Shown one piece after another: positions 19,406-64,000 of a stretch of 64,000 bases of DNA (within the stretch, counting starts at the first letter, position 1; every line of letters starts with the position of its first letter). Below the pieces are notes generated by a model. The model was not told the origin of the DNA. It saw nothing but the letters and a program-made list of their open reading frames with translations, and did no database searches. Both the position numbers and the translations under genes were made by a program. Origin of the DNA: Mytilus edulis (lineage: Eukaryota). The stretch is taken from positions 26,555,690 through 26,619,689 of the forward strand of contig NC_092353.1 of NCBI RefSeq assembly GCF_963676685.1, in the 5' to 3' direction.

Positions 19406-21229
19406 AACTTCGTATACTTTATTTTTGTATTTGTACAAAGATATTTAAAGACATGTACCATCTGCAGAAGTGATGTCAACTTTAATTTGGATCCTAGATT
19501 TTGAATTGTTTGACCGGTTTTACTGTTAATGTCCTCCTTATCTTTTACTCCCTTAAATAACATGTTATGTTGCTTTTTACTACAACACCTACTTACATGG
19601 AAGGTTGAAGGTTGGGGGGAAAAATGAAGGAACCCAAATGATGTACTTAAGTTTTTCCAAATTGTAATGAAAAATACAAGAACCATGCATGCAATAATCT
19701 TACTTGTGTTCCATGAACCAATGAAAACGGAAGTAAGCAGCAAACCAATATACCTTTCACAAAATACTCAGAAGATCAGAATGCAAACACAGTCTTAATT
19801 ATTATTCAACCTTATACATAATGATACATATACTTCTGTATCAAAACCATTATGATTATTACTTGGATGTACTTCAAAAGTTTAAATATACATGTACTAT
19901 TCTGAACCATATTTATCCTATGGTTATTGAAACCAATTGGCTGTTAATCTTCTGTTCTATTTTCCATTGACAACTTTTGACCTACAAATTAGATTATGGA
20001 ACCTAAAACCTTCATGTCAACAAATACATCTTTAATGGCTCTTATAAAATAAATCAAGTTTCACAAATCTCTGTTATATAAGCTTCTTTATGGATAAATG
20101 TGCTACATTGCACAATTTTTCCCTTGAGATTAAATTTCACAGACATCTAGAACAAATCTTATAGAAAACAGAAAACTTTACCACTACTAAAGTAAACAAT
20201 GAATGGAGGATTGAGGAAATTCAATGAATGTCTACTTAATTCACAAATAATCCTTAGTGCACTGCTTGTGGTGTGCACAATATTACATAATCTAATTCAT
20301 TCTAAGTAACGTAAATAAAACATCAAGATGCATCAAATAATCTTTACAAATTTCACTGCACATTGGTGGACATAATTTTTTTTCAATACAAGTCATTCTG
20401 AAAAATCTTAGAAGTTATACTTGACTTATGTTGCCAAGTCATAACTGAATCAAGTAGAGTTTAATTAGAATTTTACAGACTTGGCCCCATGTCCATTAAT
20501 TGACTTATTCAGGACAGCTTTTTACCAAAATTTAAGAATTATGATTAAGTTGTATCTTCTGAAAATTTGAGCCCACTCCTATACCTCCTCCTTAAAAATA
20601 ACCAACAAATAAAAACAACCAAAAGAATATTTTACTTGAACTGAAATTCAATTGGATTTTTGCTGATGCTTCATAGACAAAGATTCCATCGGTAACTTAA
20701 ATTGAGATGAAAAATGGACATGCAAGTTTGGATAGCTATAGCCAAAAGCATAGGGAGTCAAACTTTTAACCTGAGATTTATGCTTTATTAAAACATCATC
20801 AAAGGTCAATTGTCTATCAATATCTTGTATTTGAACCACATTAAAGGTTAATGGTTTGATAAATTACCTTGTTAACGTACACATTTTTTAACCATAAGAT
20901 AGTTTTTTGCATAAAATTTCAACTTTCCCCGATAAAACAAATATTCATTATTATGATTAATCACAATACAAAGTAACCTTCAATATAATACAAGAGAACT
21001 TTAAATCGAGCAAAACAATACACTTATAATTTTGTTTTCCTTGTTTTCTTGACTGAATGGGTTTTAAAAATATTAAGATCAATTTTTTGAGTGAAAAATG
21101 TATAGTCCATCTAACTCAACCTCAGAGACTACCACCAGCCCCTTTTTTCAAATTTATTTTTTTTATATTTTACACTGCATTACAATTATATCAGAAACAG
21201 ATACACCTAAATTAATAAAATTTTAAAAA

Positions 21230-26789: not shown

Positions 26790-27380
26790 AAATGCTAAAA
26801 ACAGAAGGACCTTTATCCAAGTAAAGTGAAAGCTAAAAACAGAAGGACCTTACCACAGTAAAGTGAAAGCTGAAAACAGAAGGACCTTTACCCAACTAAA
26901 GTGAAAGCTAAAACTGGAAGATCTACCATAGTATAGTAAAAGCTAGAAACCTCAGGACCTTCTAAAGTAAAGTGAAAGCTGAAAGCCAGAGGACCTACCA
27001 AAGTAAAGTAAATGCTGAAAATATGAGAACCTACACCCAAGTACAGCTAAAAAATAAAAGAATACATATCACAATACAGTGAAATCTTCAAACAGATGAA
27101 GACTCACGCATACAGTGAAAGCTGTAAACAGAACACGGTCTTGTAAGGACTATAAATAAAAGAGGGATTAACAAAATTCAATGAAAGCTGAACATGATAA
27201 AATCTACCAAAGCTGTAAACAGAACATGTTGTATCTAATAGAAGAAATTCTACAGCTACTATCAAAGTATCACGAAAGCTGGAAAACAGTAAAATCCATA
27301 TCAAAGCTGTAAACTCTATATATAATATTCAATAGAAGAAGACCTACCCTAAAAGTGTAAAGAAAGCTGTAAACATTAAA
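26790..27380. repeat. Degenerate minisatellite with a ~38-bp unit (ctaaaaacagaaggacctttatccaagtaaagtgaaag), decaying towards 27380
   Basis: There are at least 8 recognisable head-to-tail units. Confidence 0.8.
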
Positions 27381-29882: not shown

Positions 29883-30061
29883 ATGTCGACAATAAAGACA
29901 ACAACACTCATGTTTTTACCACATAGTATCTGTTTATTGGGTCTACATGTTTCGCCTAGTAGATAGGCATCATCAGGTCTATCGATTAGGCGAAACATGT
30001 AGACCCAATAAACAGATACTATGTGGTAAAAACATGAGTGTTGTTGTCTTTATTGTCGACA
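29883..30061. repeat. Long near-perfect palindrome (two ~80-bp perfect arms), flanked by a direct repeat ttttac(ta)cagtacattaat at 29863-29882 and 30150-30168
   Basis: atgtcgacaataaagacaacaacactcatgtttttaccacatagtatctgtttattgggtctacatgtttcgcctag is mirrored exactly by its reverse complement. Confidence 0.85.
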
Positions 30062-33410: not shown

Positions 33411-34374
33411 GCCTTCTATACTAATCATTGATATTATGTTGATGGTCCTAAGTATAAAGCTAAGATTTATTACAACTATCACATAAACAGAACATTAACC
33501 AAGATAACTAAACAAAGACCAATGAACCTTGAAAATGAGGTCAAGGTCAGATGAACCATGCCAGGCAGACATGTACAGCTAACAATGCTTCTATACAACA
33601 TATATAGTTGACCTTTTACTTATAGTTTAAGAAAAATAGACCAAAACACAAAAACTTAACACTGTGCAATGAACCGTGAAAATGAGGTCATGGTAAAAAA
33701 AAACCTGCACGACTGACATAAAGATCATAAATTATTTCCATACACCAAATATAGTTGACCTATGGCATATAGAATTAGATAAAAGGACCAAAACTCAAAA
33801 ACTTAACTTTGACCACTGAACCATGAAAATGAGGTCAAGGTCACATGACATCTGCCCGCTAGACATGTACACCTTACAATCATTCCATACAACAAATATT
33901 GTAGACCTATTGCATATAGTATGAGAAAAACAGACCAAAACACAAAAATTTAACTATAACCACTGAACCATGAAAATGAGGTCAAGGTCAGATGACACCT
34001 GCCAGTTGGACTTGTACACCTTACAGTCCGTCCATACACCGAATATACTAGCCCTATTGCTTATAGTATCTAAAATATGGACTTGACCACCAAAACTTAA
34101 CCTTGTTCACTGATCCATGAAATTAGGTTGAGGTCAAGTGAAAACTGTCTGACAGACATGAGGACCTTGCAAGGTACGCACTTATCCAATATAGTTATCC
34201 TATTACTTATAATAAGAGAGAATTCAACATTACAAAAAATCTTAACTTTTTTTTCAAGTGGATACTGAACCATGAAAATGAGGTCAAGGACATTGGACAT
34301 GTGACTGACGGAAACTTCGTAACATGAGGCATCTATATACAAAGTATGAAGCATCCAGGTCTTCCACCTTCTAA

Positions 34375-41493: not shown

Positions 41494-43245
41494 CTAGAAT
41501 CCAGAATATTCCAACTCATAAATTTTGGCTTTTAAAGTTTCTTGGCTGTCCCTTGTATTTGAGCATCCTACATAAATATGTCCTTCTGTAGACAAAGTGA
41601 GTCTACATGGATATATAATTCCAATGTCATGCAGATTGTAATGACCAATAAATTTCCCCTCAGAGTTCAATATGTGTAGTGTAGAAATGAATATATCTGT
41701 AACTAAAATATTATCTGCAGGAGTTGTAAGCAGGTCAGAGGGCGTAAATGTTTTTTCTTCAGTGTTGATTTTTGGTTGACCAATGTACACCTGTTTGATA
41801 TCTCCTTCTTTTCCTAATACCAAGACTCTACAATCAGAATCTATCCCATCCACAACACAGATATTGCCATTGTTGGTGCTTGTAATTAATCTAGGCCGTG
41901 TAAATAATGGTTCTTTGTTGCTGTCTTCTTCATATTTTTCCAAGCATCCACCATCCTGGCCCATCACTACCACAGCAGCCTTCGTTCCTCTTCGTCCTAC
42001 ACCTACTATAACTCTGTTATCTTTGGTTATATGGACACATACTGGTTGACTTTGTGATGTACAATTTGTATATGGTCTCACAACATAATTGGATTCATCA
42101 TGTTTGAGCCATACAGTGCTACTATTGATAATAAACAGTTTTGTTTCACTGATAATAAACAGTTTTGTTTCACCTAAGGCTGCTTCAACCAGGTTTGTGC
42201 ATGCATTCATTGCTGCCATGTCACAAATAGAAAAACAGTTTGACTCTGACATAATCGTAATATTTTGATTATCAAATTTTATATGTTGCAACTTTTCAAG
42301 AATACCATCATAAATCCACAGAGTACCATCAGAACATCTGCAAATATTATGAACATTTCTTAATTGTGTGGTGAATTGTTTAGCAATTTTAAACTCAATT
42401 TTAGGATGTTGAATTTCCAAGTTTCCTCTATTTTCCATTGATCCAAAATTTACCATTGTAATTTTGTCTGGCAAGAATCTCCCCAATAATGAAAACTCAA
42501 GGTTTTCTTGTGGTGTAGCTCCACACAAAGAAACAGCAAATTTATCAAAATCATCAAAGAATTTGACAAAATCTTTTGAAGTTGTAATACTTTTTACAGT
42601 GTTACTCTTCCTCTGTAATTTTTTTAAGGTTTTCTTAATCTTGCTATGCTTTGCCCCGATTTCCTGGCTATTTAATTCCCATGTCTGCTCCAGATCTTTT
42701 ACAAGATTATCAGCATGCTTATCAACTTCACACTTAAAAGCATCCCTGTGACTAAGGATATCTTGCTTGATTTTTCTAAATTTAGCATCTTCCTGATCTT
42801 TTATGTCCTGAACTTTGTGTAATGTACTGGTCAAATTATGTATACTTTCATCAGCTTTCTTCTGTCCACTTTTAGTTATCGTCTTTTTATCATTAAGCTC
42901 TTCTTCATCAATAAAGGTGTGTCCATTGTGGACTTTGGTTACACATTTTAAACAGATGACTTTCTTACAAGTTTGACAGTATACACAGCAAGCCTGGTCT
43001 GGATGTTCTAGACATTTAACATCTCTAAAGTTAAATGTATCCACTTCTTCTTCCAGATCCAGCTCTTTAATGTCTCTAATCCTATGTTCAGTTGCATTTT
43101 TAAATCTAGCATGGACTTTATCCTTGCATCGGCTGCACATTAAAAGTTGACAGTCCAAACATTTAAATTTGATTTTATTCCCACCATCACAAAGTTCACA
43201 ACCTACTGGAATTTGTCCTCTTTGTAAAGACTTAGAAGAAGCCAT
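41494..43245 (-). CDS. Intronless TRIM-like protein (583 aa): two B-box zinc fingers, a coiled-coil and a C-terminal NHL-like beta-propeller, with no RING finger
   Basis: Uninterrupted 583-codon ORF. N-terminal CELCDGGNKIKFKCLDCQLLMCSRCKDKVHARF is B-box1-like. CLEHPDQACCVYCQTCKKVICLKCVTKVHNGH fits the B-box2 pattern C-x2-H-x7-C-x7-C-x2-C-x5-H-x2-H. A charged heptad-like region spans aa ~115-240. C-terminal motifs GNICVVDGIDSDCRVLVLGKEG and DNILVTDIFISTLHILNSEGKFIGHY are NHL-like. Confidence 0.8.
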   Translation of the reverse strand: MASSKSLQRGQIPVGCELCDGGNKIKFKCLDCQLLMCSRCKDKVHARFKNATEHRIRDIKELDLEEEVDTFNFRDVKCLEHPDQACCVYCQTCKKVICLKCVTKVHNGHTFIDEEELNDKKTITKSGQKKADESIHNLTSTLHKVQDIKDQEDAKFRKIKQDILSHRDAFKCEVDKHADNLVKDLEQTWELNSQEIGAKHSKIKKTLKKLQRKSNTVKSITTSKDFVKFFDDFDKFAVSLCGATPQENLEFSLLGRFLPDKITMVNFGSMENRGNLEIQHPKIEFKIAKQFTTQLRNVHNICRCSDGTLWIYDGILEKLQHIKFDNQNITIMSESNCFSICDMAAMNACTNLVEAALGETKLFIISETKLFIINSSTVWLKHDESNYVVRPYTNCTSQSQPVCVHITKDNRVIVGVGRRGTKAAVVVMGQDGGCLEKYEEDSNKEPLFTRPRLITSTNNGNICVVDGIDSDCRVLVLGKEGDIKQVYIGQPKINTEEKTFTPSDLLTTPADNILVTDIFISTLHILNSEGKFIGHYNLHDIGIIYPCRLTLSTEGHIYVGCSNTRDSQETLKAKIYELEYSGF

Positions 43246-46425: not shown

Positions 46426-46470
46426 ATGCCGAGAATTATGATAAAAGGAGGTGTTTGGCGTAACACGGAG
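46426..46470 (+). CDS. CDC5L: CDC5L (cell division cycle 5-like / Cef1 pre-mRNA splicing factor) exon 1: MPRIMIKGGVWRNTE followed by a GTAAAT donor
   Basis: ATG in a ccaagATGcc context. The 15 codons are identical to the conserved CDC5L N-terminus. The donor GT is at 46471. Confidence 0.85.
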
Positions 46471-46489
46471 GTAAATGTCCATACATTAT

Positions 46490-47577
46490 TGGAAGTTTTT
46501 TACTCTTTTTAATATACATTAATGATTTTCCAGAATACCTGGAACACAGCAAACTACGACTCTTCGCTGATGACAGTATTATATACCGAGAAATAACATG
46601 TCAACAAGACTGCACAAATTTACAAAAAGATCTTAACGCAGCAGCGAAATGGGAGGCTGATTGGCTCATGGCCTTCCATCCTGGAAAATGCACTATCTTA
46701 ACCATCACACAAAAAAAACAACCATTTAAACACGATTACATCCTTCATAACCATACTTTAGAACTAGTAACATCTGCAAAATATCTTGGCGTAACCCTAC
46801 AGTCTAACTTAAAATGGAACATTCACTACAACAACATCGTATCAAATGCAAATAAATCTCTTGGCTTTCTTAGGCGAAACTTAAAAATTTCTAACTCCAG
46901 TATCAAATCCCGTGCTTACCAATCAATAGTGAGACCAAAACTCGAATATGCCTGTAGTCTATGGGATCCACACACAGCAGATTATAAAAATAAGCTAGAA
47001 ATGGTACAGAGGCGTGCGGCCCGATATGTATGTAACAATTACCACAACACCAGTAGCGTTACATCCATGTTAAACGAACTACAATGGCCCTCACTCAGTG
47101 AGCGCCGCCTCAAAACCAGACTTATCATGTTCTACAAGGTCATCCATGGACTCATTGCAATCCCATCACTAGTCCTCATACCATCAGATACTAGAACAAG
47201 AAAATGACATACTCAAACATTTCGGCAAATATCCACCTCTAAAGACAGCTACAAATGGTCATTCTTTCCGCAAACAATCATTCAATGGAACATGTTGCCA
47301 CAAGTTGTGGTAGCAAGTCAAACCATTGAAATTTACAGAGATCAGTTGACACCAACTGTTCTCCACAACATAATTTAATTCTATAAATAACAATGTACAT
47401 ATTTTTTAATCACTTGTTGTTTTCTTTCATGTAAATATCACCAAGTATTCTACTAAGTTAAAGATAAATTTTTGTTCATATTTTTTAATCATATACTCCG
47501 CGCATGCAACAGTTCGTAATCTTCAATAATAATGAAGCTGTAACTGTATATCAGAAGAAGAAGAAGAAGAAGAAGTT
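46490..47577 (+). mobile_element. 5'-truncated non-LTR retrotransposon fragment (CR1/L2/RTE-like RT C-terminal domain plus 3' tail ending in an (AAG)7 microsatellite), located in CDC5L intron 1
   Basis: In-frame translation gives ..LLFLIYINDFPEYLEHSKLRLFADDSIIYREI..LQKDLNAAAKWEADWLMAFHPGKC..KYLGVTL.., which contains the FADD catalytic motif and a YINDxP motif typical of CR1-clade RTs. The ORF decays after 47207, and the element ends in (gaa)n at 47556-47576. Confidence 0.8.
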
Positions 47578-48284
47578 TATCAGTTCACACACGCTTACAT
47601 TTTTGTTTTACAACAGTGCATGTTTTTGTTTTGGCGTTTACATCAAACATTCTTAATATTGATACTGTTGTATAAGGGTGGTAATGGACATGACGAATAA
47701 CAGTTAAAATTGTTGCCAAATGACGTTAACAGTAATTTTTGGTGCATGACGATTAAATGTGCACTTTCTTTTTTAGACCATGTAGACAATAAAAAAATAA
47801 AGATTTAGTTGATCACGTTTATTTATTTCCAAAAATAACGGTAACGTTAATTATTTGAGCCCTCTGACGAATCACAATAAGGATATTTTTACAAATCACA
47901 GTAAAATTTTAATCAATTTGACGCTAACAGTAGCCGAAAATTGACAGTTGACGCCTGACTGTAAAGGGCATTACTACCCAGTTGTATGTCTAGTGATATT
48001 TCTGTAGCAGGCTACCTTTTGATATACTGTAATGACTATGTTGGAATCTGCAACACTGAACCTCAGAATTTGTGAAAAATTCACCTTTATGTGGCTTCTG
48101 ATTCAAAAGATATCTCTTGCAATGTCAAGGACAGGCAGGTACATGTAAATATCGACAAATGTATTAAAAAAAATCCAACCATTCTTACATGTATGTAAAA
48201 AATGGTGGATTAATATAAGAGTAAGAGTAAGTTATAGTTATGCTGTTTCTACAGCATGGTCAACAGTAAATTGATTAGTAAAAT

Positions 48285-48545
48285 TGAATAAAGAAATGGT
48301 GAATATGTCAAAGAGACAACTACACGACCAAATAACAGCAGAAGGCCACCAATGGGTCTTCAATGCAGGGAGAAAATCCTGCACTTGAGGTGGGCATAAG
48401 CTAACCCCTAAATAAAAATGTGTTCTAGTTCAGTGAAAACTTCAAAACATATAAATGAACAAAAAATAAAAAACATTCAAGACAAACAAATTAAAGGCCA
48501 GAGGTTCCTGACTTGGGACTGAAGCAAAAGTGAAGAACACACAGC
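48285..48545 (+). mobile_element. SINE-like family B copy in CDC5L intron 1
   Basis: Alignable to 45058-45400. Confidence 0.7.
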
Positions 48546-48686
48546 AATACCAACATTAAAATTCAGTTTATAAAATGCCTTTTAGTACTTAAAAGTAGGC
48601 CAGTTTAATGGGAAAAACTTATGTTAAACCAATGATATAAAGTATGCAATTGTATAATCATTCATTGACACTTTTCATTTCTATAG

Positions 48687-48893
<207 letters not shown>

Positions 48894-49423
48894 TAAGTTG
48901 AGATACATGTACACAATAAATTGTTACAGCGTAGAACTCCAGCTGAAATTACTTAAACTAGGAGCTAAATCTTCTTCAACAAAAATTATAATAATGAAGT
49001 AATTATCCCTAAGGTCTTGTGCTTCTTTTTTTTAATCAACTACTGATAAATTAAAGGTAAAGTTTAATGTGTGTAATTTGAAAGAAAATCAGTTGAGGTG
49101 TACTGATATTTTGCTGTAGTCCTACATACAAATATGAAGATCAGTGGAGTAGTTTAAGGCCAAAAATATATTGTGTTTTCAACTTTTCAAACACAAACAT
49201 GCTTTTTCTTCAAGTACCAATTTTAACATGAGAGGGGTTGGTCATGAACGTTCTTTTATCAAACTATTTACTTGAATGTAATCACTGAGTTGAATGTAAA
49301 TATAGAATTTCAATATAAAGTTTGTTTTTCCTAAACAAGGCTAATATCAAATGGACTGTACACTCCAAAAGTATCAACTAGAACATCATCGTCAATGACA
49401 GGAAATTAACAAAAAGAAATTGA

Positions 49424-49648
<225 letters not shown>

Positions 49649-49804
49649 TGAGTCTCATGATTCATAAGGACTTAATTAAAACATAAGTATATGAAAAATC
49701 TTGTATTAGCCTGTCATGAAAAATGAATTTAAAATGACAAGAATAGAATTTGGCATCTAGTAGCTGTGACTTACAATTCTAAAAATTTAACAACAACAAA
49801 ATAT

Positions 49805-50020
49805 TATATATGAAAAAAGAAGATGTGGTATGATTGCAAATGAGCATCTCTCCACATGAGACCAAAATGACACACCAATTAACAACTATAAGTCACTGTA
49901 TGGCCTTCAATGAGAAAACTAACAGGCTCCTGACTTGGGACAGGCACATACATACATAATGTGGTGGGGTTAAACATGTTAGCGGGATCCCAACCCTCCC
50001 CTAACCTGGGAGAGTGATAT
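49805..50020 (+). mobile_element. SINE-like family B-related copy in CDC5L intron 3
   Basis: Shares ..gatatgattgc.aatgag.. with the 21230 copy and ..aggctcctgacttgggacaggc..ggggtta.. with the 45058 copy. Confidence 0.6.
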
Positions 50021-50220
50021 AACAGTACAACATAAGAACAAACTATAAAAATGAGTTGAAAAAAAGCTTAACTCATCAGATGGGCAAAAATACAAGTGGA
50101 CGTGGACGTTTCTTTACAATGATATTGAGCAACATGAACCTCACCCAAAAAAAAATAGACATAAACTGGGTTATTAAATTTATGTTATTGAGAGGTGGTT
50201 TAATAAAATTTTACCTATAG

Positions 50221-50391
<171 letters not shown>

Positions 50392-50942
50392 TAAATGGTG
50401 GAAAAGATCGTTTGTTATAATAGTATTGTATTATCCAATGTACAAATGATGTAAATGTTAATATTTTCGAGGGGTGTTATATTCATGATTCTTATGCATA
50501 AATCTTTTATGTGGTGATTAAATTGTGCAATGATTGAAAAATTCTCCCTACAAATCACAAGTACAATACAATACAATGTGTTGTTATTATTATATAAATA
50601 ATGTTTGATGCCCTTATGTTTATACTTCCCATTCTGACATATGAGTGTGAAATATGGGGATTTGAAAACAATTGCATGCTGGAAAAGAATTCAACTGCAG
50701 CTTTGCAGGAATATGTTTTAAAAAAAAGATCCTAAACACAAAATACTATGACAAGGAAAACTTGGTCTTACACCAATAGATACTATGATAAAAGTTGGAA
50801 TGGTGTGGAATTTGGAATAGATTTCTCGTCAATGGAAAAACACTAAGCAATATCCAAAAAAAATAAATAGATAAAGCATATTGTATTGTATTTATAGATA
50901 GTCTTCTTTATTAAATGAATGTTGAAATTAATTTTGATATGA

Positions 50943-51086
<144 letters not shown>

Positions 51087-51504
51087 TGAAAGATATATAT
51101 TAGAAAAATAACTTTAATATGTATAACCATGGTTGTGACAGTATCCATAAGTTAGACAAGTGTAACAGGAAAAAGGCATGCCATAATTTGGATCTTTTAA
51201 AAAGAAATCATGAAATAAAACCATAAAAAAGATTGAAAGGGTTTGGACAAACCAAATATTTTTAAGTGTGGCCTAATGTCTAGAATGTAATGATTGAATA
51301 TTGAATGGAGCTTTTCACTCCCCTCAGAAAGGTTACCAATGTCTTAGCAAAAAACGTAGCTTCAGTCTGCAGAATTCAGCAGCAAATTGTTTTACAGAGT
51401 CAGTTTTGATGTTTGCCGCCTATCTTGCAGCTTCAAGTTTGCCTTCCTATTCACTAAGTAATTTTTTGAATTCTTAAAATCTCTAAATTGATTCTTTTTA
51501 CCAG

Positions 51505-51555
51505 GAGGTTAGCAGCATTACAAAAGAGAAGAGAGTTACGAGCAGCAGGAATAGA
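51505..51555 (+). CDS. CDC5L: CDC5L exon 6 (RRLAALQKRRELRAAGI)
   Basis: Acceptor tttaccag; donor ga|GTAAGT. The frame is consistent with exons 5 and 7. Confidence 0.85.
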
Positions 51556-51561
51556 GTAAGT

Positions 51562-51835
51562 TTTTATGTCCCATTTATGGGCATTATGTTTTCTGGTCTG
51601 TGTGTCCATTCCTCCGTCTGACTGTCCTGCATCAAGTTAAAGTTTTTTGTCGAGGTAGTTTTTGATGAAGTTGAAGTCCAATCAACTTGAAACTTAGCAC
51701 ACATGTTCTCTATGATATGATCTTTCTAATTTTAATGTCAAATTAGAGATTTTCCCCCATTTTCACGGTCCACTGAACATAGAAAATGATAGTACGGATT
51801 GGGCATCTGTGTACTATGGACACACTCTTGTTTCA
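51562..51835 (-). mobile_element. SINE-like family A copy in CDC5L intron 6
   Basis: The reverse complement matches 27745-28112, including the terminal atgcccataaatgggac hairpin. Confidence 0.75.
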
Positions 51836-52320
51836 TGTCATTTATTCATTGACACAGAAAAAATTTGAACAAGATATATATGTGATTGTTTAAATAGAAA
51901 ATTTGATATAAAAAAAGAGGTATGACTAGTTGCTATATATATTCTCTCCCCAGTTAAGATGTTTGAATACATTACCAAAGTAAAAGTCAGAGGGAAACAA
52001 AATAAGAAGGAAAAGTTCAAAATGTAAATAGTGATCATTAGCAGAAGCGATAATTCCATGAGCATTACATGCTTTAAACTCTTTAAATGTGGGTTAATAT
52101 TCAAAAGTGGTACTGTAGAATCATTATATTCATTGGATACCGGAAAAACCATGAATTTAAATGTTCAACAAATTGTAAATTTGCTGTATGATTAAATGCA
52201 GACTTTTGGAAAACCATGAAATAAATATCCACGAAAATGCAAGTTTTCCTCAATCCACGAAAATTGGTCCCCATGAAAATAAATGAATCCACAGTAACTC
52301 CCCGTGTATTACATGATTAA

Positions 52321-52470
<150 letters not shown>

Positions 52471-53085
52471 TAGAAATCATTTGAAACAAAAAATATCATA
52501 TATTGTCGTTATTTTGAAAAAAAGAGCATGAATTCAGAAAAAAGTTTTATTATAATTTTATAGGAATGAAAAATAGATAAATGAATTTAAGGTGTATGAA
52601 GCGGTCTGTTGCTATAAAGCAGTCTGATTTAACGGGCATTATACATTTTGTGTACAACTGTTATCAGAAAAGAAACTAAATAAAATGATACATTCCTTCT
52701 TGCACTAGTTTCACCCTTCTACAAACAGTAACTGGTAGATATGGGAGTCTATATAGTCAGCTTAAACAGCAACAAATTGATATTTCACAAATTAATAAAA
52801 AAAATAATATTTGAGGCGTTTAAGTAGGAAAGGACCAATTATTATCAGTTAATAACAAGCAACAAAATTGATCAATAAATTGTTGATTGCTAACATCCAG
52901 TGGCAAATATTTCATGCATGTTCAGGAGGAACAAGCAACTAGACGCAATACTGGCCAGGATATTTGATTACATGTCATAATGGAGAATTGGCTCAAGTAT
53001 TATCCAGATATGGAAAGGAGTACTGTCTGATGTAAATCTTTCCAATATTCCTTTTTATTATCAAAATTCCATTTATTTTTGACAG

Positions 53086-53189
53086 GTTTCCATGACACAT
53101 CTGAAGAAGTTTTTAAGCCAAAAGATATTAATTTTAAAAGATTAAGACAACAAAATCTGGATGGAGAAAGAAGAGATGATGCAGAGGCT
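53086..53189 (+). CDS. CDC5L: CDC5L exon 8 (GFHDTSEEVFKPKDINFKRLRQQNLDGERRDDAEA)
   Basis: Acceptor tttgacag; donor GTAAGT. Matches conserved GFYDTSEE...RKLRQQDLDGE. Confidence 0.85.
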
Positions 53190-53679
53190 GTAAGTCATTT
53201 CTTGCCAAGTATATTTTTAATTCATTTATTTTCATGGTAACAATTTTCCTGGATGTTGATAATAATGCCCTCGCGTATTACCTCTTAACATAGAACAAGT
53301 TCAAATTTGAGTGGCATCACTTTTTTGTTTGCTTTTGTCTGCATTCTCTCTTTACTTCACACCAGCGGGATATTTATAAACTAATACACCACCAAACACC
53401 GATCAAGTTAAAATTGGGTGGTGTCACTATCACCATTTAGGATTTATGTCCATGGATAAATGTAAAAATTACTGAATTTACCAATTTCATACTCTTTACT
53501 TTGCCACAACCAGCAACTTCTAAGAAAATCAAAGAGAAACAAAAGAGAATAGTTGTTGATAGATTTTTGAGACTATGATTTTCAAATGCAATGGGTAAAA
53601 AAATAGACTTATACTTTCTTTTTTTATCAAATATTTTCTCCCTTAAAGTAAAAACATGTATTTATTTGTATAATTTTAG

Positions 53680-53759
53680 AGAGAAAGAAAGAAAGATAAA
53701 CTAAAACAAAAGAAAAGAAAAGAAAATGATTTACCTGGAGCAATAGCCAGCCAAAGCAA
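53680..53759 (+). CDS. CDC5L: CDC5L exon 9 (RERKKDKLKQKKRKENDLPGAIASQS-)
   Basis: Acceptor aattttag; donor aa|GTAAGT. Aligns to the conserved [21 protein letters not shown] block. Confidence 0.75.
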
Positions 53760-53989
53760 GTAAGTGTAAAATTGTTTTGAAGCTCAGAGTAATTAAACAA
53801 ATGTTTGACTGGTCGCAATGTACAAAATTTATTACAAACATTTTTTTGGCTGTTTTGTTTAGTGTTTGCCTGTTTTTGGCATAGGATTAATTGGTGATAA
53901 ACACCACTTTCAGCACTAATGTTCTATTTTGTGGTGGTCATTGGTGGAGGCAGCTGGAGTGCTCAAAGAAAATCACCTACGGTAATACC

Positions 53990-54160
53990 TCCATTATAAA
54001 AACTGACAATCCTAGTCAATTAAGATTGGAGTAAAGTGCACCTTCCCCATGGGGGATTCGAACTCACAACCTCAGTGTGGATAGGCTAGCAATGTAGAAG
54101 TTTGACAACTTAGACCTTTTGGGCACTGAGATCCCGGTCAGAAAGAAGGAGAAAAACAGA
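53990..54160 (-). mobile_element. tRNA-derived SINE-like element. The reverse complement carries a T-arm-like GGTTGTGAGTTCGAATCCCCCATGG. A second copy at 54790-54933 is the host of the hAT-like element.
   Basis: A GTTCGAATC box is present on the minus strand. The second copy shares aggctagc(a/g)at..agaagtttgac...aaaaacagattt(a/g)aat. Confidence 0.4.
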
Positions 54161-54169
54161 TTTAAATAT

Positions 54170-54750
54170 TAATCCAATCTTGGCCAACGTCATCTTTGGG
54201 GTATCTAGTTTGAAAATGTGTCCGATGACCTGGCCATCCAACCAAGATGGCCGCCATGGCTAAAAATAGAACAGGGGTAAAATGTAGATTTTGGCTTATA
54301 ACTCTGAAACCAAAGCATTTAGAGCAAATCTGACAAGGAGCTAAATTGTTAATCAAGTCAATATCTATCTGCCCTGAAATTTTTAGATGAATTGGACAAC
54401 TGGTTGTTGGGTTGCTGCCCCCCAATTGGTAATTTTTAAAGAAATTTTGCCGTTTTTGGTTATTATCTTGAATACTAATATAGATAGAGATAAACTGTAA
54501 ACAGCAATAATGTTCAGCAAAGTAAGATCTACAAATAAGTTAACATGACCAAAATGGTCAATTGACCCCTTAAGGAGTTATTGCCCTTTATAGTCAATTT
54601 TTAACAATTTTCATTAATTTGGTAAATTTATGTAAATTTTTACCAAGTAATTTTCTCTGTTACTAATGGGCAAAGTTCATTATAGATATAATTGTAAGAA
54701 GCAAGAACGTTCAGTAAAGTAAGAACTTCAAACACATCACCATCACCAAA
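54170..54750. repeat. Solo, partial copy of the 501-bp repeat family, located in CDC5L intron 9
   Basis: High similarity to 61740-62190 (ggggtatctagtttgaaaatgtg...ccaagatggccgccatggctaaaaatagaaca...ttgggttgctgcccc). Confidence 0.85.
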
Positions 54751-54789
54751 ATACAATTTTGTCATGAATCCATTTATGTCCTTGTTTAA

Positions 54790-54933
54790 TATGCACATAG
54801 ATCAAGGTGAGCGACACAGGCTCTTTAGAGCCTCTAGTTTGCAGGCTAGCGATACAGAAGTTTGACTTCTTATACCATCTGGCCACCAAAGTCCCTGTTG
54901 TTATAAAAAATAAGAAGAAAAACAGATTTGAAT
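54790..54933. mobile_element. Second copy of the tRNA-like SINE family, which supplied the ATTTGAAT target site for the hAT-like insertion
   Basis: Alignable to 54060-54160. Confidence 0.4.
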
Positions 54934-55969
54934 CAGGGCTTCCAAAACGGTCATATATTCCGGTCATTTGTATAATGTCTGGTAAAAGTCCGGCTGGTCA
55001 AAGTATGAAACGGTCATATACTTTTTAGTTTTCAAGGCTTTTTCGGTCATTTTTACATAATTCACGATCTTTTTGACCAAACCTTTTGCCTTTAACATCA
55101 TCACATTTCCAGTCATAAATGTGACATGATGATTAATTACTATTAAAACAACACCTACTTCAATACTTTATAATTTTAATCAAGGCAAATTAGTAGTTGG
55201 ACAGCTGAAATCTACCTGTTCAGGTGACAGGTGAACTATGTTCAGTACCAGACATTGTATAAATTGATCGGTTATTCACAATTTTTGTTCTTACTTTTCA
55301 GCGGTTTGTTTCTAATTGATTTAGTCCAAAAGATTAAAATTATTAGAAATTAGTTATCAACATGATTTGATGAAAAATTTAAAAAGGATTTAAATGAAAA
55401 ATCCTCAGAACTACGTCGTATGAACTAGAACACGTGTGCGCATGTGCACAGGTGGGAAATTTAATTATGCATCCTACATTTCTTCAAAAATGCTAAAATT
55501 ATCATTGATACATGTATCTAACGTTCATTTCAAGTATTTTGTTGAAGAAATAACGTGGAAAGAGCTTCTTCACTCAGTCGTGCTTTGTTAACGTACACTG
55601 ATTTTACATATCCGTTTATGGTCCATGTTTTACCATTGTCAAGTCAACATCCGGTTGACCTCTCCGGTTAGAACAATGTGAAACGAAAGTAAAGTTTTTG
55701 ACAATGTCATTTTGCACAAATAAAAAGTCTAAGGCAGATATGAGCACGCTGATGTGCACACTTTGAATGATGCACTGCCAATTTAACAGTTACATCCGTA
55801 CATCAAATTCATATCATATCAAAGTAAAGTTTAAAATCGTTTTTTTTTTTAATGTAATGTCAATCATTGGAATGGCCATCTGATTACCATAATTGCCTTT
55901 TGTGACTAAGTCTTAAGGGATTAAAATCGGGATCAGATATGAAATGTCCGGCTGGCTCAAATATTTTTT
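54934..55969. mobile_element. Non-autonomous hAT-like transposon (1036 bp) with 14-bp TIRs CAGGGCTTCCAAAA and a perfect 8-bp TSD ATTTGAAT, nested inside a SINE copy in CDC5L intron 9
   Basis: The left TIR at 54934-54947 is the reverse complement of the right TIR at 55956-55969. The flanking ATTTGAAT occurs at 54926-54933 and again at 55970-55977. There is no long internal ORF. Confidence 0.75.
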
Positions 55970-56039
55970 GGAAGCCCTGATTTGAATAGACACAGCATAT
56001 GTAAAAATTCACTTTATATCATATTAATTTATTTTTCAG

Positions 56040-56115
56040 TTTCCAAGAACCAGTGAAAAAGAGAAGTAAACTTGTATTGCCAGCTCCACAGATCTCTGAT
56101 TTAGAATTAGAAGAG
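56040..56115 (+). CDS. CDC5L: CDC5L exon 10 ([26 protein letters not shown])
   Basis: Acceptor atttttcag; donor GTCAGT. Matches conserved [20 protein letters not shown]. Confidence 0.85.
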
Positions 56116-56830
56116 GTCAGTTGTATGTCTAGCTCTCTTGGGCAGATTTGTCCATGTGAACTAGTACAAACACATCTGACATATCTTTACAATTTGCATT
56201 TGTTATCTTTTACATTTTTCAACCTCCTTTAAAGTGATTAGGCTGATTTGAACTTGAGTTTATAGTTTCTGTTCTCTTATTTCAGCTTTCCTCAATGATA
56301 TACAATGCTGAAAAAACAAGTTTGAATTTGGATTTTTACCTTTCTGAAATAATGTCTCTTTATAAAGTTATATGAAAAATGGGGGGGACACATTCTTCAT
56401 CTATTTTAAATTTTATTATAATGTTGACATATTGCTTTGTATCTTGTTGAATTGTTAAAAGTAATTTCATGACAAGAAATAAGTTCTTTATTTTATTTGT
56501 CATACTTTTGCACCAATATATCATCAAAATGTAGATCTGTTAAGTTTGTGAAAGTAATTTTCTGTATTTCAAATATTAGATGCAGCCAAATTAAAGCAAT
56601 TTATATTTGTAAATTTATTCGTTTAACAAATATTATCATCACACTTTTCTACTACTCTTAAACAGAATGACTCCATGTTTGGTCAGCATCATGACAGTGA
56701 TGAGTTGTAAAGTATGAGCCTCTTTCTGAAGTGAAAGATACCAACTTCTTAAAATTCCAAAAGAGTTAATTTATACATTTTGTAAATACTAAATCTGTAC
56801 TGTATATGTTATTGCATAATTCTGTTTTAG

Positions 56831-57004
<174 letters not shown>

Positions 57005-57359
57005 TAGTATTTTTCTCTCACACTGTCATATGAATTTTTCTTTTGCAACTTTGCATTAAAAATCTTTTATCATTTTGATTTTTTTTTTATTCTTGAATAA
57101 ACATTGCTTTCAATGTATGAAAATAAAAGATACGGTCTCTATTTCATTAAAATCATTTTATTTGGACCTCATTCTGATTAACGGAAGGGTAAACACAAAG
57201 TAAATGAACCAATGTGAAGAAATTCAGCTAGAGACAGATTTTAATTATATCATTTTATTTTTCCACTTCTAAATTTAAATAGTTGTTTTGAAAGCTATGT
57301 TTTTTACTGGAACTAAAATTATCCCTTGTTTTTTACTATTTATATATACATAGAACTAA

Positions 57360-57557
<198 letters not shown>

Positions 57558-58320
57558 TAGACTCCAATGATTAATGTCACTTTCCTAGCTTTGCTACCAA
57601 AGCTGATTTTTTGAAGACCTCCAACTAGAATTAAATTAATTAGGAAACATTTGGGCTGCTCATAATTTGGAAAGAACCTTACTTAATATATTGAACAACT
57701 GAAGTTCTTATACTGTGATTCATTTATTTTGTGGGTACAAATTTGTATAGATAAAGGAAAAGAGATTTCCATTGATATTTTGTGGTTTTTCAATGGTCTG
57801 CAAATAAGCCAATAGAAAAATTGTACTTAGTTTAACATTTAAATGTGTGGTTCATCTGTATCTGCTTAATATGCTAAAATTGGTAATTATGAATAATAAT
57901 GAATCCCTAGTAGGTCACACAATCTTAATTCTATAGAAAGAAAGTGAGTTAGGCAATATTGAATGTTTGCATGTTTGATACCATATCTCCCAGTTAAAGC
58001 TTCTCTATCCTAAGATAGTACTGCACTGCACTTTTCATGTCATTCTGATAATAGTAATTTCCAGTGGAAAAGCAGAAATTGGATATTTTTCAACATTGTT
58101 TGAAGATCACATAGAATTGTCCTGTTATCTAGTATCTTGTTTATTGTTTCAGTTAAGAATACAAAATTATGTTACCTTTCATAATATAATTCATTAAAAT
58201 CTCCAAGAAAAAAATATAGGTTGTTAGTGATACCATATTATATGATGCTTATGTCAATTTTATTCTAAACAATTTGAATCAGGACCCTCTAATAGGGATT
58301 ATTTGTTTGAATAATTACAG

Positions 58321-58454
58321 CATTAACACCACATGGTATGACCCCTAGAATGGGCGTGGCAGGACAGACACCATTGAGGACACCTGTGAGAGACAAACTA
58401 AATATTAACCCTGATGAGGATTATGACATGAATGTTAATGACAAATTTTACCAG
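58321..58454 (+). CDS. CDC5L: CDC5L exon 13 (ALTPHGMTPRMGVAGQTPLRTPVRDKLNINPDEDYDMNVNDKFYQ)
   Basis: Acceptor aattacag; donor GTATGT. Matches conserved TPLRDKLNINPED. Confidence 0.85.
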
Positions 58455-58665
58455 GTATGTATAAATAAGCAGTTACTTAAGAATACTACATAAAAATTTG
58501 ATGCAGATGTTTTTAAGTTTGGAGCATTATGAATATGAAATAGATGTCCACTAGTAAAAAAAATGACTAAAATAGAAAATAATTTTATATGTTAAAAACA
58601 TGAAAAATTTGTAAACCAAGTGAAAATTTGACATAAATCATAAATATGATATTTATTGTTTTTAG

Positions 58666-58846
58666 AGAGACCTCAAAGACCAGTTAAAACATGGTTTGGC
58701 CAGTCTACCTCGTCCTAAAAATGATTATGAAATAGTGGTTCCCGAAGACATGGAGCAGGATATACATGAACCAATGCAGACAGACGATTACATTGAGGAT
58801 CAGGCAGACATTGATGCTGCATCAGAGGAGGAGAGGAGAGCTATCA
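58666..58846 (+). CDS. CDC5L: CDC5L exon 14 (RDLKDQLKHGLASLPRPKNDYEIVVPEDMEQDIHEPMQTDDYIEDQADIDAASEEERRAI-)
   Basis: Acceptor tgtttttag; donor a|GTAAGA. Matches conserved LPAPKNDFEIVLPE..YIEDAADVDA. Confidence 0.85.
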
Positions 58847-59219
58847 GTAAGATATACATACAGCTAAATGCCATCATTCAAGACTTTGATAAACTTATTG
58901 TTAATTCAGAAATTTTTTATGATCTTTTTATTATAGCAAACAATTGCAACCTATTGGTGACACTTTTTTTAAATCTTTGTAGAGTTATTAGTATACTATA
59001 TATACTGAAATGACAATTACTAATTTGGAATTTCTGTCCATTGTTTAACAAACTGAACAAATACAAACACAAATTTCTAAACTTGCAGTAAAGTTTTCAA
59101 AACATTCATTGATTTACATCAAATTAGGAAGAGTATGGTGGTTTCAGGCTGCACTCAGCAAAGCATTTTATTTTATATAATTTAATAGAAAGGTGAAATA
59201 ACCAGTGGTTATTTTATAG

Positions 59220-59344
59220 GACAAAAAGAATTAAGAATGAGATCTCAGTCAGTACAGAGAGACATGCCCCGTCCAACAGATGTCAACAGTAATATACTGA
59301 GAGTGGCTGGTCCTGGTGATCCTGCTCTTACAGATCTACAGAAG
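59220..59344 (+). CDS. CDC5L: CDC5L exon 15 (RQKELRMRSQSVQRDMPRPTDVNSNILRVAGPGDPALTDLQK)
   Basis: Acceptor ttttatag; donor GTAAAA. Matches conserved DLPRPSEVNETILRP...PLTDLQK. Confidence 0.85.
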
Positions 59345-59738
59345 GTAAAATCAATAGACATTTTAATACTTAACAATTCTACCAACCAAAAAGTTACCAA
59401 TTGTACAGCATGGCTCAACCCTTTGTCGTCTATGTCTAATTTAGTATTTGTTCTTTTGTACTACACTTAGGTGTAATTCAACAGGTTTTCATGTTTAAAC
59501 TCTGTTTGCTAGACCGGAAAAGCATTATCTATTTAGTATAGCATAAATATAATACTGTGGATTCATTAATTTTCCTGGATACATGAACATGATTTCATTG
59601 TTTGGTTCAAGTCTGCAGACAAGTCTAATAGAAATCTGTGATCTGATGAACATCCTTACAATTAATGAAAAGTGATACACAATGTATAAATAAATAAAGT
59701 AAATAGAATTTAATTATTTCTTTGTTCTCTATTTGTAG

Positions 59739-59933
59739 GCTGAGGAATTAATCAAAAAAGAAATGTTAACTATGCTTCATCATGATGCATTATATACACC
59801 AGGTTCTAATCAACTGGGTGTCGCACCAGGAAGTAAAAAACAAACACAAAAAGGGGTTCTAAATCAGGCCCAGCATGCATCATTTTTAGAGGAACATCCA
59901 TATGAAAAGGTCAATGAAGCTGATTTAGAAGAG
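59739..59933 (+). CDS. CDC5L: CDC5L exon 16 (AEELIKKEMLTMLHHDALYTP...EEHPYEKVNEADLEE)
   Basis: Acceptor atttgtag; donor GTATAG. Contains 65 in-frame codons and matches conserved SEELIKKEMITMLHYD...EHNPYEKFSKEELKK. Confidence 0.85.
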
Positions 59934-61158
59934 GTATAGTTTACATAGTGTTGCACATCAATTCGCCTTTTCTGAAACTTGAGGACTATGGGTAATCTCA
60001 TTGTTCGTACACCAAAATGAATATAACGCCACGTCATTGGTTGAATTTCCATTGTTTATGATGTTTTGATATACACTTTTAAAAATATAACCCAGGATGC
60101 ATTAGATTCTGAAACAGTGAATTATTGCATTTGAGTCTCAACAGTATTGGTATTGCAAAGGGTTACTTGAAGCTTGACGTCCACCTATAAACATCCTGTT
60201 AGCCATTTACCTCTACTCAATAGAGAGTTATTATAGATAATGTACATATCACAATCATTCATAACTAATAACAGCCTATATTAAGGTTTCATTGCAATGA
60301 ATTCATGAGCAACATGACAGGTCAAAGGTCATTAATAATTTTAAACTCGCACAAATATATATCCAAGAAAATAATTACTTTTCTCTCTTTCAATTTTTTC
60401 AAATTATTTATTGCTAACGGAATGTATTCTGTTATATATTTACATAAAAGTTTTTGAATAACTGGTCATTATCATGATATATGGACTGCCCACAGGACAT
60501 TGGTAGTGATAATGACTGAGCCGGAGGCGAGATCATAATCGCTGTTACAGTCAATACCACTTTCCTACGGGCAGTCTATATATCACGATAATGACCAGTT
60601 ATTCAAAAACTTTTATGTTTATTTCATTGAGGAACCATGTTTTTGAAAATTCTCATAAATTCAAAATGTCCAAAGCAAACTCAAGTAGTTGTACAATTTC
60701 TATGACAAAGAGTGAAGACAAGTCGTAGTAATACTACCATTCATTTTAGAGCATTTTTTCAGGATATGAATACTCAATCAAGTTCTCTATAATTTTATAA
60801 TTTACCAAAATAACAGGAAATGTTTTATTAAAGGAACATCTCTCTAAACAGAGAAACCACACCCCAACGGTCATTAACAGACGGAAACCGGGCCCCACTG
60901 GTCATTATCATCTAAAACGACCGGTTTTCTGGTCCGTTTTGTTCTGTTAATGATCAATGGAATTTATTACTGAAGAGAATCTTATTTTCAACCGATATGA
61001 AAAAATATATATTTCAATAATAAAATTTCCTTTACTGTGAAAGTGTTTTCTGTATACCCTTGTATACCCTTGTTTATACATGTTGTGCTAGGTTGTATGT
61101 TACAATACAGAAAATTCATTATTTAGAAAAAGAAATAATGCTTGCTGTAAAAATCTAA

Positions 61159-61488
<330 letters not shown>

Positions 61489-61699
61489 TAAAGTTCTGTT
61501 TTCAAGTTGTATATTGTGTGTACATGATAACATGGTAAATGTAAAATCAATTCTTTTATATATTTTGATCTCAATTTGATTCATTTTATTTTGACCAGCC
61601 TGTTGATTTATACCTATGTGATTTATTTTTAGCTCGACTGGCCCGAAGGGCCAAGTGAGCTTTTCCCATCACTTGGCGTCCGTCGTCCGTCGTCGTCGT

Positions 61700-64000
61700 T
61701 AACTTTTACAAAAGTCTTCTCCTCTGAAACTACTGGGCCAAATTAAACCCATCTTGGCCACAATCATCATTGGGGTATCTAGTTTAAAAAATGTGTGGCG
61801 TGACCCGGCCAACCAACCAAGATGGCTGCCTTGGCTAAAAATAGAACATAGGGGTAAAATGCAGTTTTTGGCTTATAACTCAAAAACCAAAGCATTTAGA
61901 GCAAATCTGACATGGGGTAAAATTGTTTATCAGGTCAAGATCTTTCTGCCCTCTAATTTTCAGATGAATCCGACAACCCGTTGTTGGGTTGCTGCCCCTG
62001 AATTGGTAATTTTAGGGAATTTTTGCTGCTTTTGGTTATTATCTTGAATATTATTATAGATAGAGATAAACTGTAAACAGCAATAATGTTCAGCAAAGTT
62101 AGATTTACAAATAAGTCAACATGACCAAAATGGTCAGTTGACCCCTTTAGGAGTTATTGACCTTTATAGTCAATTTTTAACCATTTTTCGTAAATCTTAG
62201 TAATCTTTTACAAAAATTTTCTCCTCTGAAACTACTGGACCAAATTAAACCAAACTTGGCCACAATCATCATTGGGGTATCTAGTTTAAAAAATGTGTGG
62301 CGTGACCCGGCCAACCAACCAAGATGGCCGCCATGGCTAAAAATAGAACATAGGGGTAAAATGCAGTTTTTGGCTTATAACTCAAAAACCAAAGCATTTA
62401 GAGCAAATCTGACATGGGGTAAAATTGTTTATCAGGTCAAGATCTTTCTGCCCTCAAATTTTCAGATGAATCTGACAACCCGTTGTTGGGTTGCTGCCCC
62501 TGAATTGGTAATTTTAGGGAATTTTTGCTGTTTTTGGTTATTATCTTGAATATTATTATAGATAGAGATAAACTGTAAACAGCAATAATGTTCAACAAAG
62601 TTAGATTTACAAATAAGTCAACATGACCAAAATGGTCAGTTGACCCCTTAAGGAGTTATTGCCCTTTATAGTCATTTTTTACCAATTTTTCGTAAATCTT
62701 AGTAATCTTTTACAAAAATCTTCTCCTCTGAAGCTACTGGGCCAAATCAATCCAAACTTGGCCACAATCATCATTGGGGTATCTAATTTAAAAAATGTGT
62801 GGTGTGACCCTGCCAACCAACCAAGATGGCCGCCATGGCTAAAAATAGAACATAGGGGTAAAATGTAGATTTTGGCTTATACAGTCGAACCTCGTTGTGT
62901 CGAAGTCGAAGGGACTGGACCAAAGTATTCGACTCATCCGAGGTCGAGTTTGTCGTCATAAATTTTGAATGCATGAAATACGGTATGAGAATTGAGTAAA
63001 CTAGATACAATGAACAGTGTGCCTTTTTTCTCTCGATAAGACACTTTATGATTGTGTATTCAATCTCCATTTTAGGTCCTTCGTAATAATTAAAAACACA
63101 AGTACAGATACAAATCATGCACAAATAAAATCAATAGTCTACACAAATATTTACAAAGGTCAGTCGCTATAAATTTTGAAATCACTCGCGGCACGAAATA
63201 AGTTCTGAACGGTCTCTGATGAGGTCGTCTGCTAACATTAAATCATCATGAATTTATTATAATTGTCATAATCCTTTTATCTATGGTAATTAATGAGTTT
63301 TAAATCTAACGATTCATTTAATCTCGGCTTGGGTTAATTAGATTCGTTTCGTTTTATCTCAGGTGAAAAATGTTCAACACACTAACATGCCGCTTGAACG
63401 ATCAACAAATTAGCGGTCACCATAAACATGTCATTTTAACTGTTCTACAAACAAGTATGTTTATTCAGCTTTAATCTCTTTTGAAAATGATTAGTTGACA
63501 TAAGAAATACATCCGATTTGAATTTTTATCATTAGGTCTGCATCTTTTGAAAATTCTTACTTTCGAAGTTCGAGACATCGGGGTCAATTTACATTATTTT
63601 ACTTCGACGGGACTATAAAATTTACTCGACTTAACCGAGTATTCGAATCAACCGAGTTCCACTCATCAGAGGTAAATATGCATTGATCAAACGGGAATTT
63701 TACCGGGACCAAGAAATTACTTCGACTCATCCGAGTTTTCGACACAACCGAGTTCGACACAACGAGGTTCGACTGTAACTCTAAAACCAATGCATTTAGA
63801 GCAAATCTGACATGGGGTTAAATAATCTATTAGGTCAAGATCTATCTACCCTGAAATTTTCAAACAAATGGGACAACCCGTTGTTGGGTTGCTGCCCCTA
63901 AATTAGTAATTTTAAAGAAATTTTGCAGTTTTTGCTTATTATCTTGATTATTATTATAGATAGAGATAAACTGTAAACAGCAATAATGTTCAGCAAAGTA
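61700..64000. repeat. Tandem repeat with a 501-bp period in the CDC5L intron after exon 17. It has about 3.5 copies, and the fourth copy is interrupted by the Tc1/mariner-like MITE.
   Basis: tctcctctgaaactactgggccaaattaaac recurs at 61721, 62222 and 62723. The same 98-aa ORFs in the six-frame track repeat within it. Confidence 0.9.
62882..63775. mobile_element. Tc1/mariner-like non-autonomous element (894 bp) with perfect 23-bp TIRs CAGTCGAACCTCGTTGTGTCGAA and a TA TSD, inserted into the fourth copy of the 501-bp tandem repeat
   Basis: Intact repeat copies read ggcttataactcaaaaacc. Here ggcttaTA is followed by the element and then TAactctaaaacc. The TIRs are exact reverse complements and there is no transposase ORF. 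Confidence 0.85.

Follow-up and report, generated by a model that had tools for sequence, protein, structure and literature searches.

A non-autonomous hAT-like DNA transposon at the edge of a low-copy repeat segment in a CDC5L-like intron

The stretch of DNA analysed here (64 kb, referred to as the window) is eukaryotic and AT-rich, with about 31% G+C. When the scallop CDC5L protein (P0003) was compared with it by tblastn, 17 collinear matches were obtained on the plus strand from 46426 to 61398; the best CDC5L protein match was that of the scallop Mizuhopecten. A 179-aa open reading frame (ORF) at 46668-47207 (+), right after the first CDC5L exon match, resembles the C-terminal part of a LINE reverse transcriptase and gave no Pfam match at E<=1. 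Just upstream of CDC5L, at 41494-43245 (-), lies an intact, apparently single-exon ORF of 583 aa, TRIM-like in that it has B-box zinc fingers and matches NHL weakly; the exact protein is absent from the public collection. The scallop as best match, the expanded B-box/NHL type of this ORF and the Helentron-type carriers (see below) suggest that the DNA is that of a bivalve or another mollusc. The features of the intron under study are listed in Table 1.

Table 1. Coordinates of the repeats and exons at the host intron (positions in the window)
Feature	Position	Strand	Remarks
CDC5L-like exon upstream of host intron	53680..53757	+	tblastn, aa 255-280
Paralogous segment ("related empty site")	54083..54167	.	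target 8-mer once, ATTTAAAT at 54160-54167
5'-truncated HINE-like element of Helentron type	54168..54840	+	1.2 units of a 502-bp tandem repeat and right module ending ...GGTGAGCGACACAGGCTCTTTAGAGCCTCTAG
Host segment left of the insertion	54843..54933	.	91-bp low-copy repeat, sole part homologous to 54083-54167
TSD, left copy, ATTTGAAT	54926..54933	.	8 bp, exact
Non-autonomous hAT-like DNA transposon	54934..55979	+ (orientation arbitrary)	1,046 bp, perfect TIRs and perfect TSD
Left TIR, CAGGGCTTCCAAAA	54934..54947	+	14 bp
Subterminal CGGTCAT x4, direct	54948..55050	+	starts 54948, 54961, 55011, 55044
Right TIR	55966..55979	-	exact reverse complement of left TIR CAGGGCTTCCAAAA
TSD, right copy, ATTTGAAT	55980..55987	.	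8 bp, exact
CDC5L-like exon downstream of host intron	56038..56118	+	tblastn, aa 281-307, 89% identity

The element in the intron is bounded by terminal inverted repeats (TIRs) that are perfect over 14 bp, where the inverted repeat stops. A hAT-like MITE with TIRs and an exact 8-bp target site duplication (TSD) had been reported for this locus in a preliminary description; TIRs and TSD are present, with CAGGGCTTCCAAAA at the termini and ATTTGAAT in the flanks. Position 55977, given there as the end, leaves out the last 2 bp of the element, which reaches to 55979; the right TSD ends 10 bp beyond 55977. [quoted passage not shown]

The window was scanned for perfect TIRs of at least 10 bp with an exact 8-bp flanking duplication, spanning up to 5 kb. 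Two structures were obtained, the hAT-like element and one long palindrome. The mean number of such structures in 200 first-order Markov simulations of the window was 0.045, and a TIR of 14 bp or longer was seen in none of them (0/200). At the base composition of the window, identity of two 8-mers by chance has P = 4e-5. A chance coincidence or a local rearrangement that produced the TIR and TSD without a transposon would be in keeping with the single full copy of the element in the window. Self-comparison of the 64 kb revealed no second copy, and no further TIR 14-mer was found in the window with up to two mismatches tolerated. This explanation is, however, contradicted by the simulations and by the probability of the TSD, and is refuted by an independent copy that ends at the same base (see below). 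Its probability is negligible, and a chance origin of TIR and TSD is excluded.

The independent copy was obtained from a protein search. The stop-free stretches of the element were translated and compared with a collection of 5.8 billion proteins, which includes ORFs from metagenome contigs. One stretch of 67 aa matched two ENA contigs, L001 and L002; a concatenate of the remaining stop-free stretches had no match in the same collection. The unrelated metagenome contig L001 carries the left 533 bp of the element, 96.4% identical to window positions 54934-55465 (3.6% difference), and gives the left end of the family only. Its homology with the window ends exactly at the outer C of CAGGG (54934), and the sequence beyond is an unrelated flank, ...GATGCCCCAGAC. 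This stop proves independently that a repeated, transposed unit ends at 54934. Thus, copies with the same terminus are found at different loci, as far as the left end is concerned.

The second contig, L002, carries a 118-bp internal piece of the element (corresponding to window 55062-55179) in another context. This suggests that the interior of the hAT-like element is mosaic, or that the piece is common to several families. At positions 1-522 of L002, the 118-bp piece adjoins an element of about 270 bp with 30-bp TIRs (TTTGATTTTTATGGGGGGGCTAGGATGAAA) and a TCCTGCC(T)n run. The copies of the family on record are one in the 64-kb window and, in public contigs, one partial copy and one 118-bp fragment. 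Three GC-rich bacterial contigs retrieved in a scan of JGI metagenomes with the TIR plus 7 nt have only the 21-mer in common with the element and were rejected as chance matches. The element end was not found in scans of prokaryote genomes or of viral contigs, and a full-text search of the literature with the TIR and the repeat motifs brought up nothing relevant.

Four copies of CGGTCAT lie within 103 bp of the left TIR, while the heptamer occurs five times in total on both strands of the 64-kb window. A fifth subterminal site, at 55110, reads CCAGTCAT in the window copy and CCGGTCAT in L001, where CGGTCAT is intact. The right end has no exact CGGTCAT and one CGGACAT with a single mismatch. 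No Pfam domain was detected in any frame of the element, which is thus non-autonomous. Two further internal repeats were observed. The left subterminal stretch 54966-54984 recurs in inverted orientation about 280 bp inward, at 55246-55264 (19 nt, 89% complementary), and a 23-nt stretch with GTCCGGCTGG is present in direct orientation near both element ends (54984-55006 and 55942-55964).

Elements of the hAT superfamily have an 8-bp TSD, TIRs of 5-27 bp and subterminal repeats, often asymmetric between the ends, to which the BED domain of the transposase binds. Their TIRs carry the terminal motif YARNG. As target, members of the Ac family prefer nTnnnnAn and those of the Buster family nnnTAnnn. 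In bivalves, hAT is among the richest superfamilies of DNA transposons. The element described here has an 8-bp TSD, a short, perfect 14-bp TIR that begins with CAGGG, and subterminal repeats at its left end. With T as its second base and A as its seventh, ATTTGAAT agrees with the Ac pattern and not with that of Buster; for this single TSD, such agreement has a chance probability of p = 0.12 and is weak evidence. Of the two diagnostic positions of nTnnnnAn, the flank of L001, CCCCAGAC, matches one.

Assignment of a superfamily from TIR and TSD alone is conventional and does not amount to proof. An 8-bp TSD is not exclusive to hAT, and no transposase could be linked to the element: a transposase-encoding partner with these TIRs was not found in public collections, which gave only chance bacterial matches or nothing. 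The element could accordingly belong to another superfamily with 8-bp duplications, such as P, Merlin, Novosib or some Mutator-like elements, but this is very unlikely. The CAGGG start and the short TIR suit hAT, and the TSD matches nTnnnnAn. The TIRs of P elements are 31 bp long, Mutator TIRs are usually long with TSDs of 9-11 bp, and Merlin and Novosib are, among molluscs, almost confined to cephalopods. The element is therefore most probably a non-autonomous hAT transposon, inserted fairly recently in a 2.3-kb intron of the CDC5L-like gene, its right TIR lying 58 bp upstream of the acceptor site of exon 56038-56118.

The closest parallels are the non-autonomous Ds of maize and the hAT elements Mar and Vege of Drosophila willistoni, which share the 8-bp TSD, the short CAGRG TIRs and the lack of coding sequence. 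An AT-rich interior and short subterminal repeats are also common to the present element and to non-autonomous hAT elements and hAT MITEs. Mar is a hAT MITE of 610 bp with an 11-bp TIR, CAG(G/A)GGTAGGC, and its TSD follows the Buster pattern, whereas that of the element here fits the Ac pattern. The interior of the present element has no relative among known sequences. With its 1,046 bp, the element exceeds the typical length of MITEs, which mostly stay under about 800 bp. Of the earlier designation "hAT-like MITE", the hAT hallmarks are thus retained and the MITE label is not; "non-autonomous hAT element" is the better label. Hermes and Ac prefer nTnnnnAn targets, a pattern that ATTTGAAT fits, and resemble the element in the 8-bp stagger and the asymmetric subterminal arrays, which in them are bound by the BED domain; in Hermes, too, the two ends differ. 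The Ac transposase binds AAACGG repeats, and AAACGGTCATATA occurs twice in the present element, a likeness that is a lead and not a test. In contrast to Hermes and Ac, the element has no transposase gene, and both its repeat motif and its TIR sequence are different.

The age of the insertion was assessed from CpG content and from comparison of the copies. The observed/expected ratio of CpG reaches 0.85 in the element, as against 0.30 in the intron outside it and 0.38 over the whole window. Four of the differences from L001 have TpG or CpA in the window copy and CpG in L001, as is typical of early decay driven by methylation. The intact TIR and TSD, the small difference between the copies and the slight CpG depletion give the insertion a young appearance, and it is probably young. 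It is younger than the Helentron-type carrier and the unclassified old repeat fragment beside it.

The sequence to the left of the element had been regarded as part of a tRNA-like SINE into which the transposon was nested, with a second copy of that SINE at 54060-54160 showing the uninterrupted sequence. Self-comparison of the window confirms that a second copy exists, at 54083-54167 (copy 1), which is 72.5% identical to 54843-54933 (copy 2) over 91 bp (E = 2e-9); the two segments are 766 bp apart and only these 91 bp are common to them. The stretch aaaaacagatttaaat at 54152-54167, which contains the target 8-mer once, lies just outside the range given before. A doubling of the 8-mer in the uninterrupted copy had been named as a finding that would speak against the nested insertion; there is no such doubling, ATTTAAAT being there a single time. 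Alignment of the copies, proposed as a way of confirming the empty site, upholds it in this respect only. The similarity of the segments ends exactly at the target 8-mer, a different repeat starts at 54168, and the sequence to the right of the insertion (55988-56037) shows no similarity to anything. Thus, the element was inserted at the edge of the shared segment and is not demonstrably nested in it. The supposed empty site is a 72.5%-identical paralogue and not an orthologous empty allele. The best-conserved part of both segments is the 26 nt beside the insertion site (88%).

The repeat between the two segments was identified from its relatives. The 84-aa stop-free stretch at 54746-54997 (-) was used for an exhaustive protein search, and three short ORFs led to the contigs L006, L007 and L008, each of which carries a copy of a HINE-like family, 79-86% identical to the window. 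Three other hits from that search were discarded: in P0027 (presumably also P0028) only a repetitive TGIYDRFG motif was matched, and P0032 is an unrelated repetitive protein. The similarity to the three contigs stops at window 54836-54840, ...CAAGGTGAGCGACACAGGCTCTTTAGAGCCTCTAG, and the flanks beyond are unrelated. The four HINE-like copies end in ...GGTGAGCGACACAGGCTCTTTAGAGCCTCTA(G/A/T), that is, with the 3' terminus GGCTCTTTAGAGCCTCTA(G/A/T), followed by unrelated flanks. As in the right module of a HINE, a subTIR-like GGTGAGC is followed by a terminal palindrome, GGCTCTTTAGAGCC. The interval 54790-54842, which had been counted as SINE, is this right module.

A complete HINE-like element of about 640 bp is present in L008, and its other end matches the sequence that precedes a tandem array, at 61626 in the window. 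The left module, seen in L008 and in the window copy from 61626 onward, combines the inverted repeat AAGCTCAC/GTGAGCTT with a (CGTC)n microsatellite, as expected of a HINE left module. The array itself consists of 502-bp tandem units at 61742-64000, of the same repeat as in the copy at 54168-54840; 502-bp units are present in L008 too. This second window copy (61626-64000) has at least 4.5 monomers, extends past the window end and lies within a later CDC5L intron. The copy at 54168-54840 has no left module and is therefore truncated.

HINEs are non-autonomous Helentrons that act as satellite carriers in oysters, as described for Cg_HINE of Crassostrea gigas (PMC7492417). The elements here share with Cg_HINE a left inverted repeat with a microsatellite, central tandem repeats, and a right subTIR with a palindrome (PMC7492417), and a T follows the element in three of the four copies. 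Monomers measure 502 bp here, as against 140-180 bp in most Cg_HINEs (PMC7492417), and the sequence is, as far as checked, unrelated to published elements. The segments 54083-54167 and 54843-54933 abut both ends of the truncated copy as direct repeats of about 90 bp. Helitron-type elements make no target duplication (PMC7492417), and these flanking repeats are unexpected for an insertion of this type. The junction of copy 1 with the HINE-like element falls at the same segment position at which the hAT-like element was integrated in copy 2.

Two explanations of the 91-bp segments were weighed. According to the first, the transposon interrupted a minus-strand tRNA-derived SINE whose family has a second, intact copy at 54060-54160. 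Introns of bivalves often contain SINEs with a tRNA-Ser head, and the sequence here shares with the tRNA-derived SINEs of bivalves (superfamilies V, Meta, Deu and Core) its intronic location, a length of about 325 bp in copy 1, box-A/B-like motifs and an A-rich end. A loose A-box-like motif is found at the same alignment position on the minus strand of both segments (TGGCCAGATGG and ATCTCAGTGCC); copy 1 alone has a B-box-like motif, AGTTCGAATCC, followed by an A-rich stretch that ends near 53842, and it carries the target 8-mer singly. However, a B-box-like 11-mer with one mismatch is expected about once per window by chance. No tRNA was found in either segment by ARAGORN (default and -ps), and the Rfam tRNA model matched nothing at E<=10, whether applied to 3 kb or to 161-nt slices with either segment at the centre. 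A "tRNA-Arg" called by ARAGORN with -ps70 at 54043-54131 (-) was dismissed as noise, five other calls being made in the same 1.2 kb. RNA folding of the supposed heads gave z = -0.2 for copy 1 and z = -2.6 for copy 2, with a cloverleaf in neither.

The extent and number of the copies also argue against a SINE. Only 91 bp at 72.5% identity are common to the segments, the homology does not continue on the right of the insertion, and 54790-54842 belongs to the different, HINE-like element. The best-conserved 26 nt would precede the tRNA-like start, an unusual arrangement in a Pol III SINE. Neither the 64-kb window nor 13 kb of related contigs (L001, L002, L006-L008) contained a further copy of the segment. 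A protein search with a concatenate of ORFs of the host repeat and one CDC5L exon returned only CDC5L homologues and no SINE copies, and the host segment was not found in a scan of viral contigs. Unlike bivalve SINEs, the sequence has a head that tRNA models do not recognise, and it is represented by two adjacent partial copies only. The placement of the insertion inside a tRNA-like SINE is thus unconfirmed, and we consider a SINE origin unlikely; box-like motifs read by eye are insufficient to call a tRNA-derived SINE.

According to the second explanation, the host segment represents the tail of a plus-strand retroposon, LINE or SINE, or a local duplication tied to the HINE-like insertion, and the transposon hit its last 8 bp and not its interior. 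On the plus strand, both segments end in the purine/A-rich AAGRAGAAAAACAGATTTRAAT, which is their best-conserved part, has the look of an A-rich 3' tail and marks the stop of the similarity, and the segments bracket the truncated HINE-like copy. This origin is possible and is put forward tentatively, the balance being somewhat against it: no LINE partner or additional copies were seen, a duplication of about 90 bp is not a known by-product of Helitron-type elements (which make no TSD), and the segments are 27% diverged from each other, as against 14-21% between the HINE copy and its relatives.

For the hAT-like element, a mode of insertion can be proposed from what is established for the hAT superfamily. 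A hAT transposase encoded at another locus of the genome would bind the CGGTCAT subterminal repeats and the 14-bp TIRs and mobilise the element in trans. The enzyme would excise the element and join its 3' ends to a target cut with an 8-bp stagger at ATTTGAAT, and gap repair would then produce the 8-bp direct duplication. The target would have been the outer edge of an old low-copy segment of about 91 bp, abutting the 3' end of the Helentron-type carrier.

The hAT-like element itself is ordinary, a newly found family of a well-known type. With it, the repeat inventory of a probable bivalve gains a non-autonomous hAT family, apparently a young one, in a group where hAT is already known to be abundant. 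The locus shows a small intron built almost wholly of successive repeat insertions, and the flanking "SINE" is corrected to be largely the end of a Helentron-type satellite carrier. A more far-reaching interpretation joins two proposals: that the hAT-like family is still mobile, the copy 58 bp from the CDC5L acceptor being a possible splicing-affecting insertion polymorphism, and, separately, that the repeats of about 90 bp reflect an undescribed route of Helentron-type insertion or repair. The intact TIR and TSD, the 96% identity of the copies and the near absence of CpG decay would fit a mobile family. If so, the element could alter the splicing of CDC5L, an essential splicing factor. Taken jointly, the two proposals are speculative and rather improbable.

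Other repeats were observed elsewhere in the window. A near-perfect palindrome (foldback) at 29884-30061 has arms of about 75 bp and a 28-nt loop, its outermost bases including the palindromic TGTCGACA. Short tandem arrays of about 75% identity lie at 33517-34136 and 26794-27034, with periods of 147/294 bp and 36-37 bp, respectively. A 71-bp satellite at 15083-19410 comprises 61 copies of 95% identity and shows a strong C-over-G skew in the composition profile.
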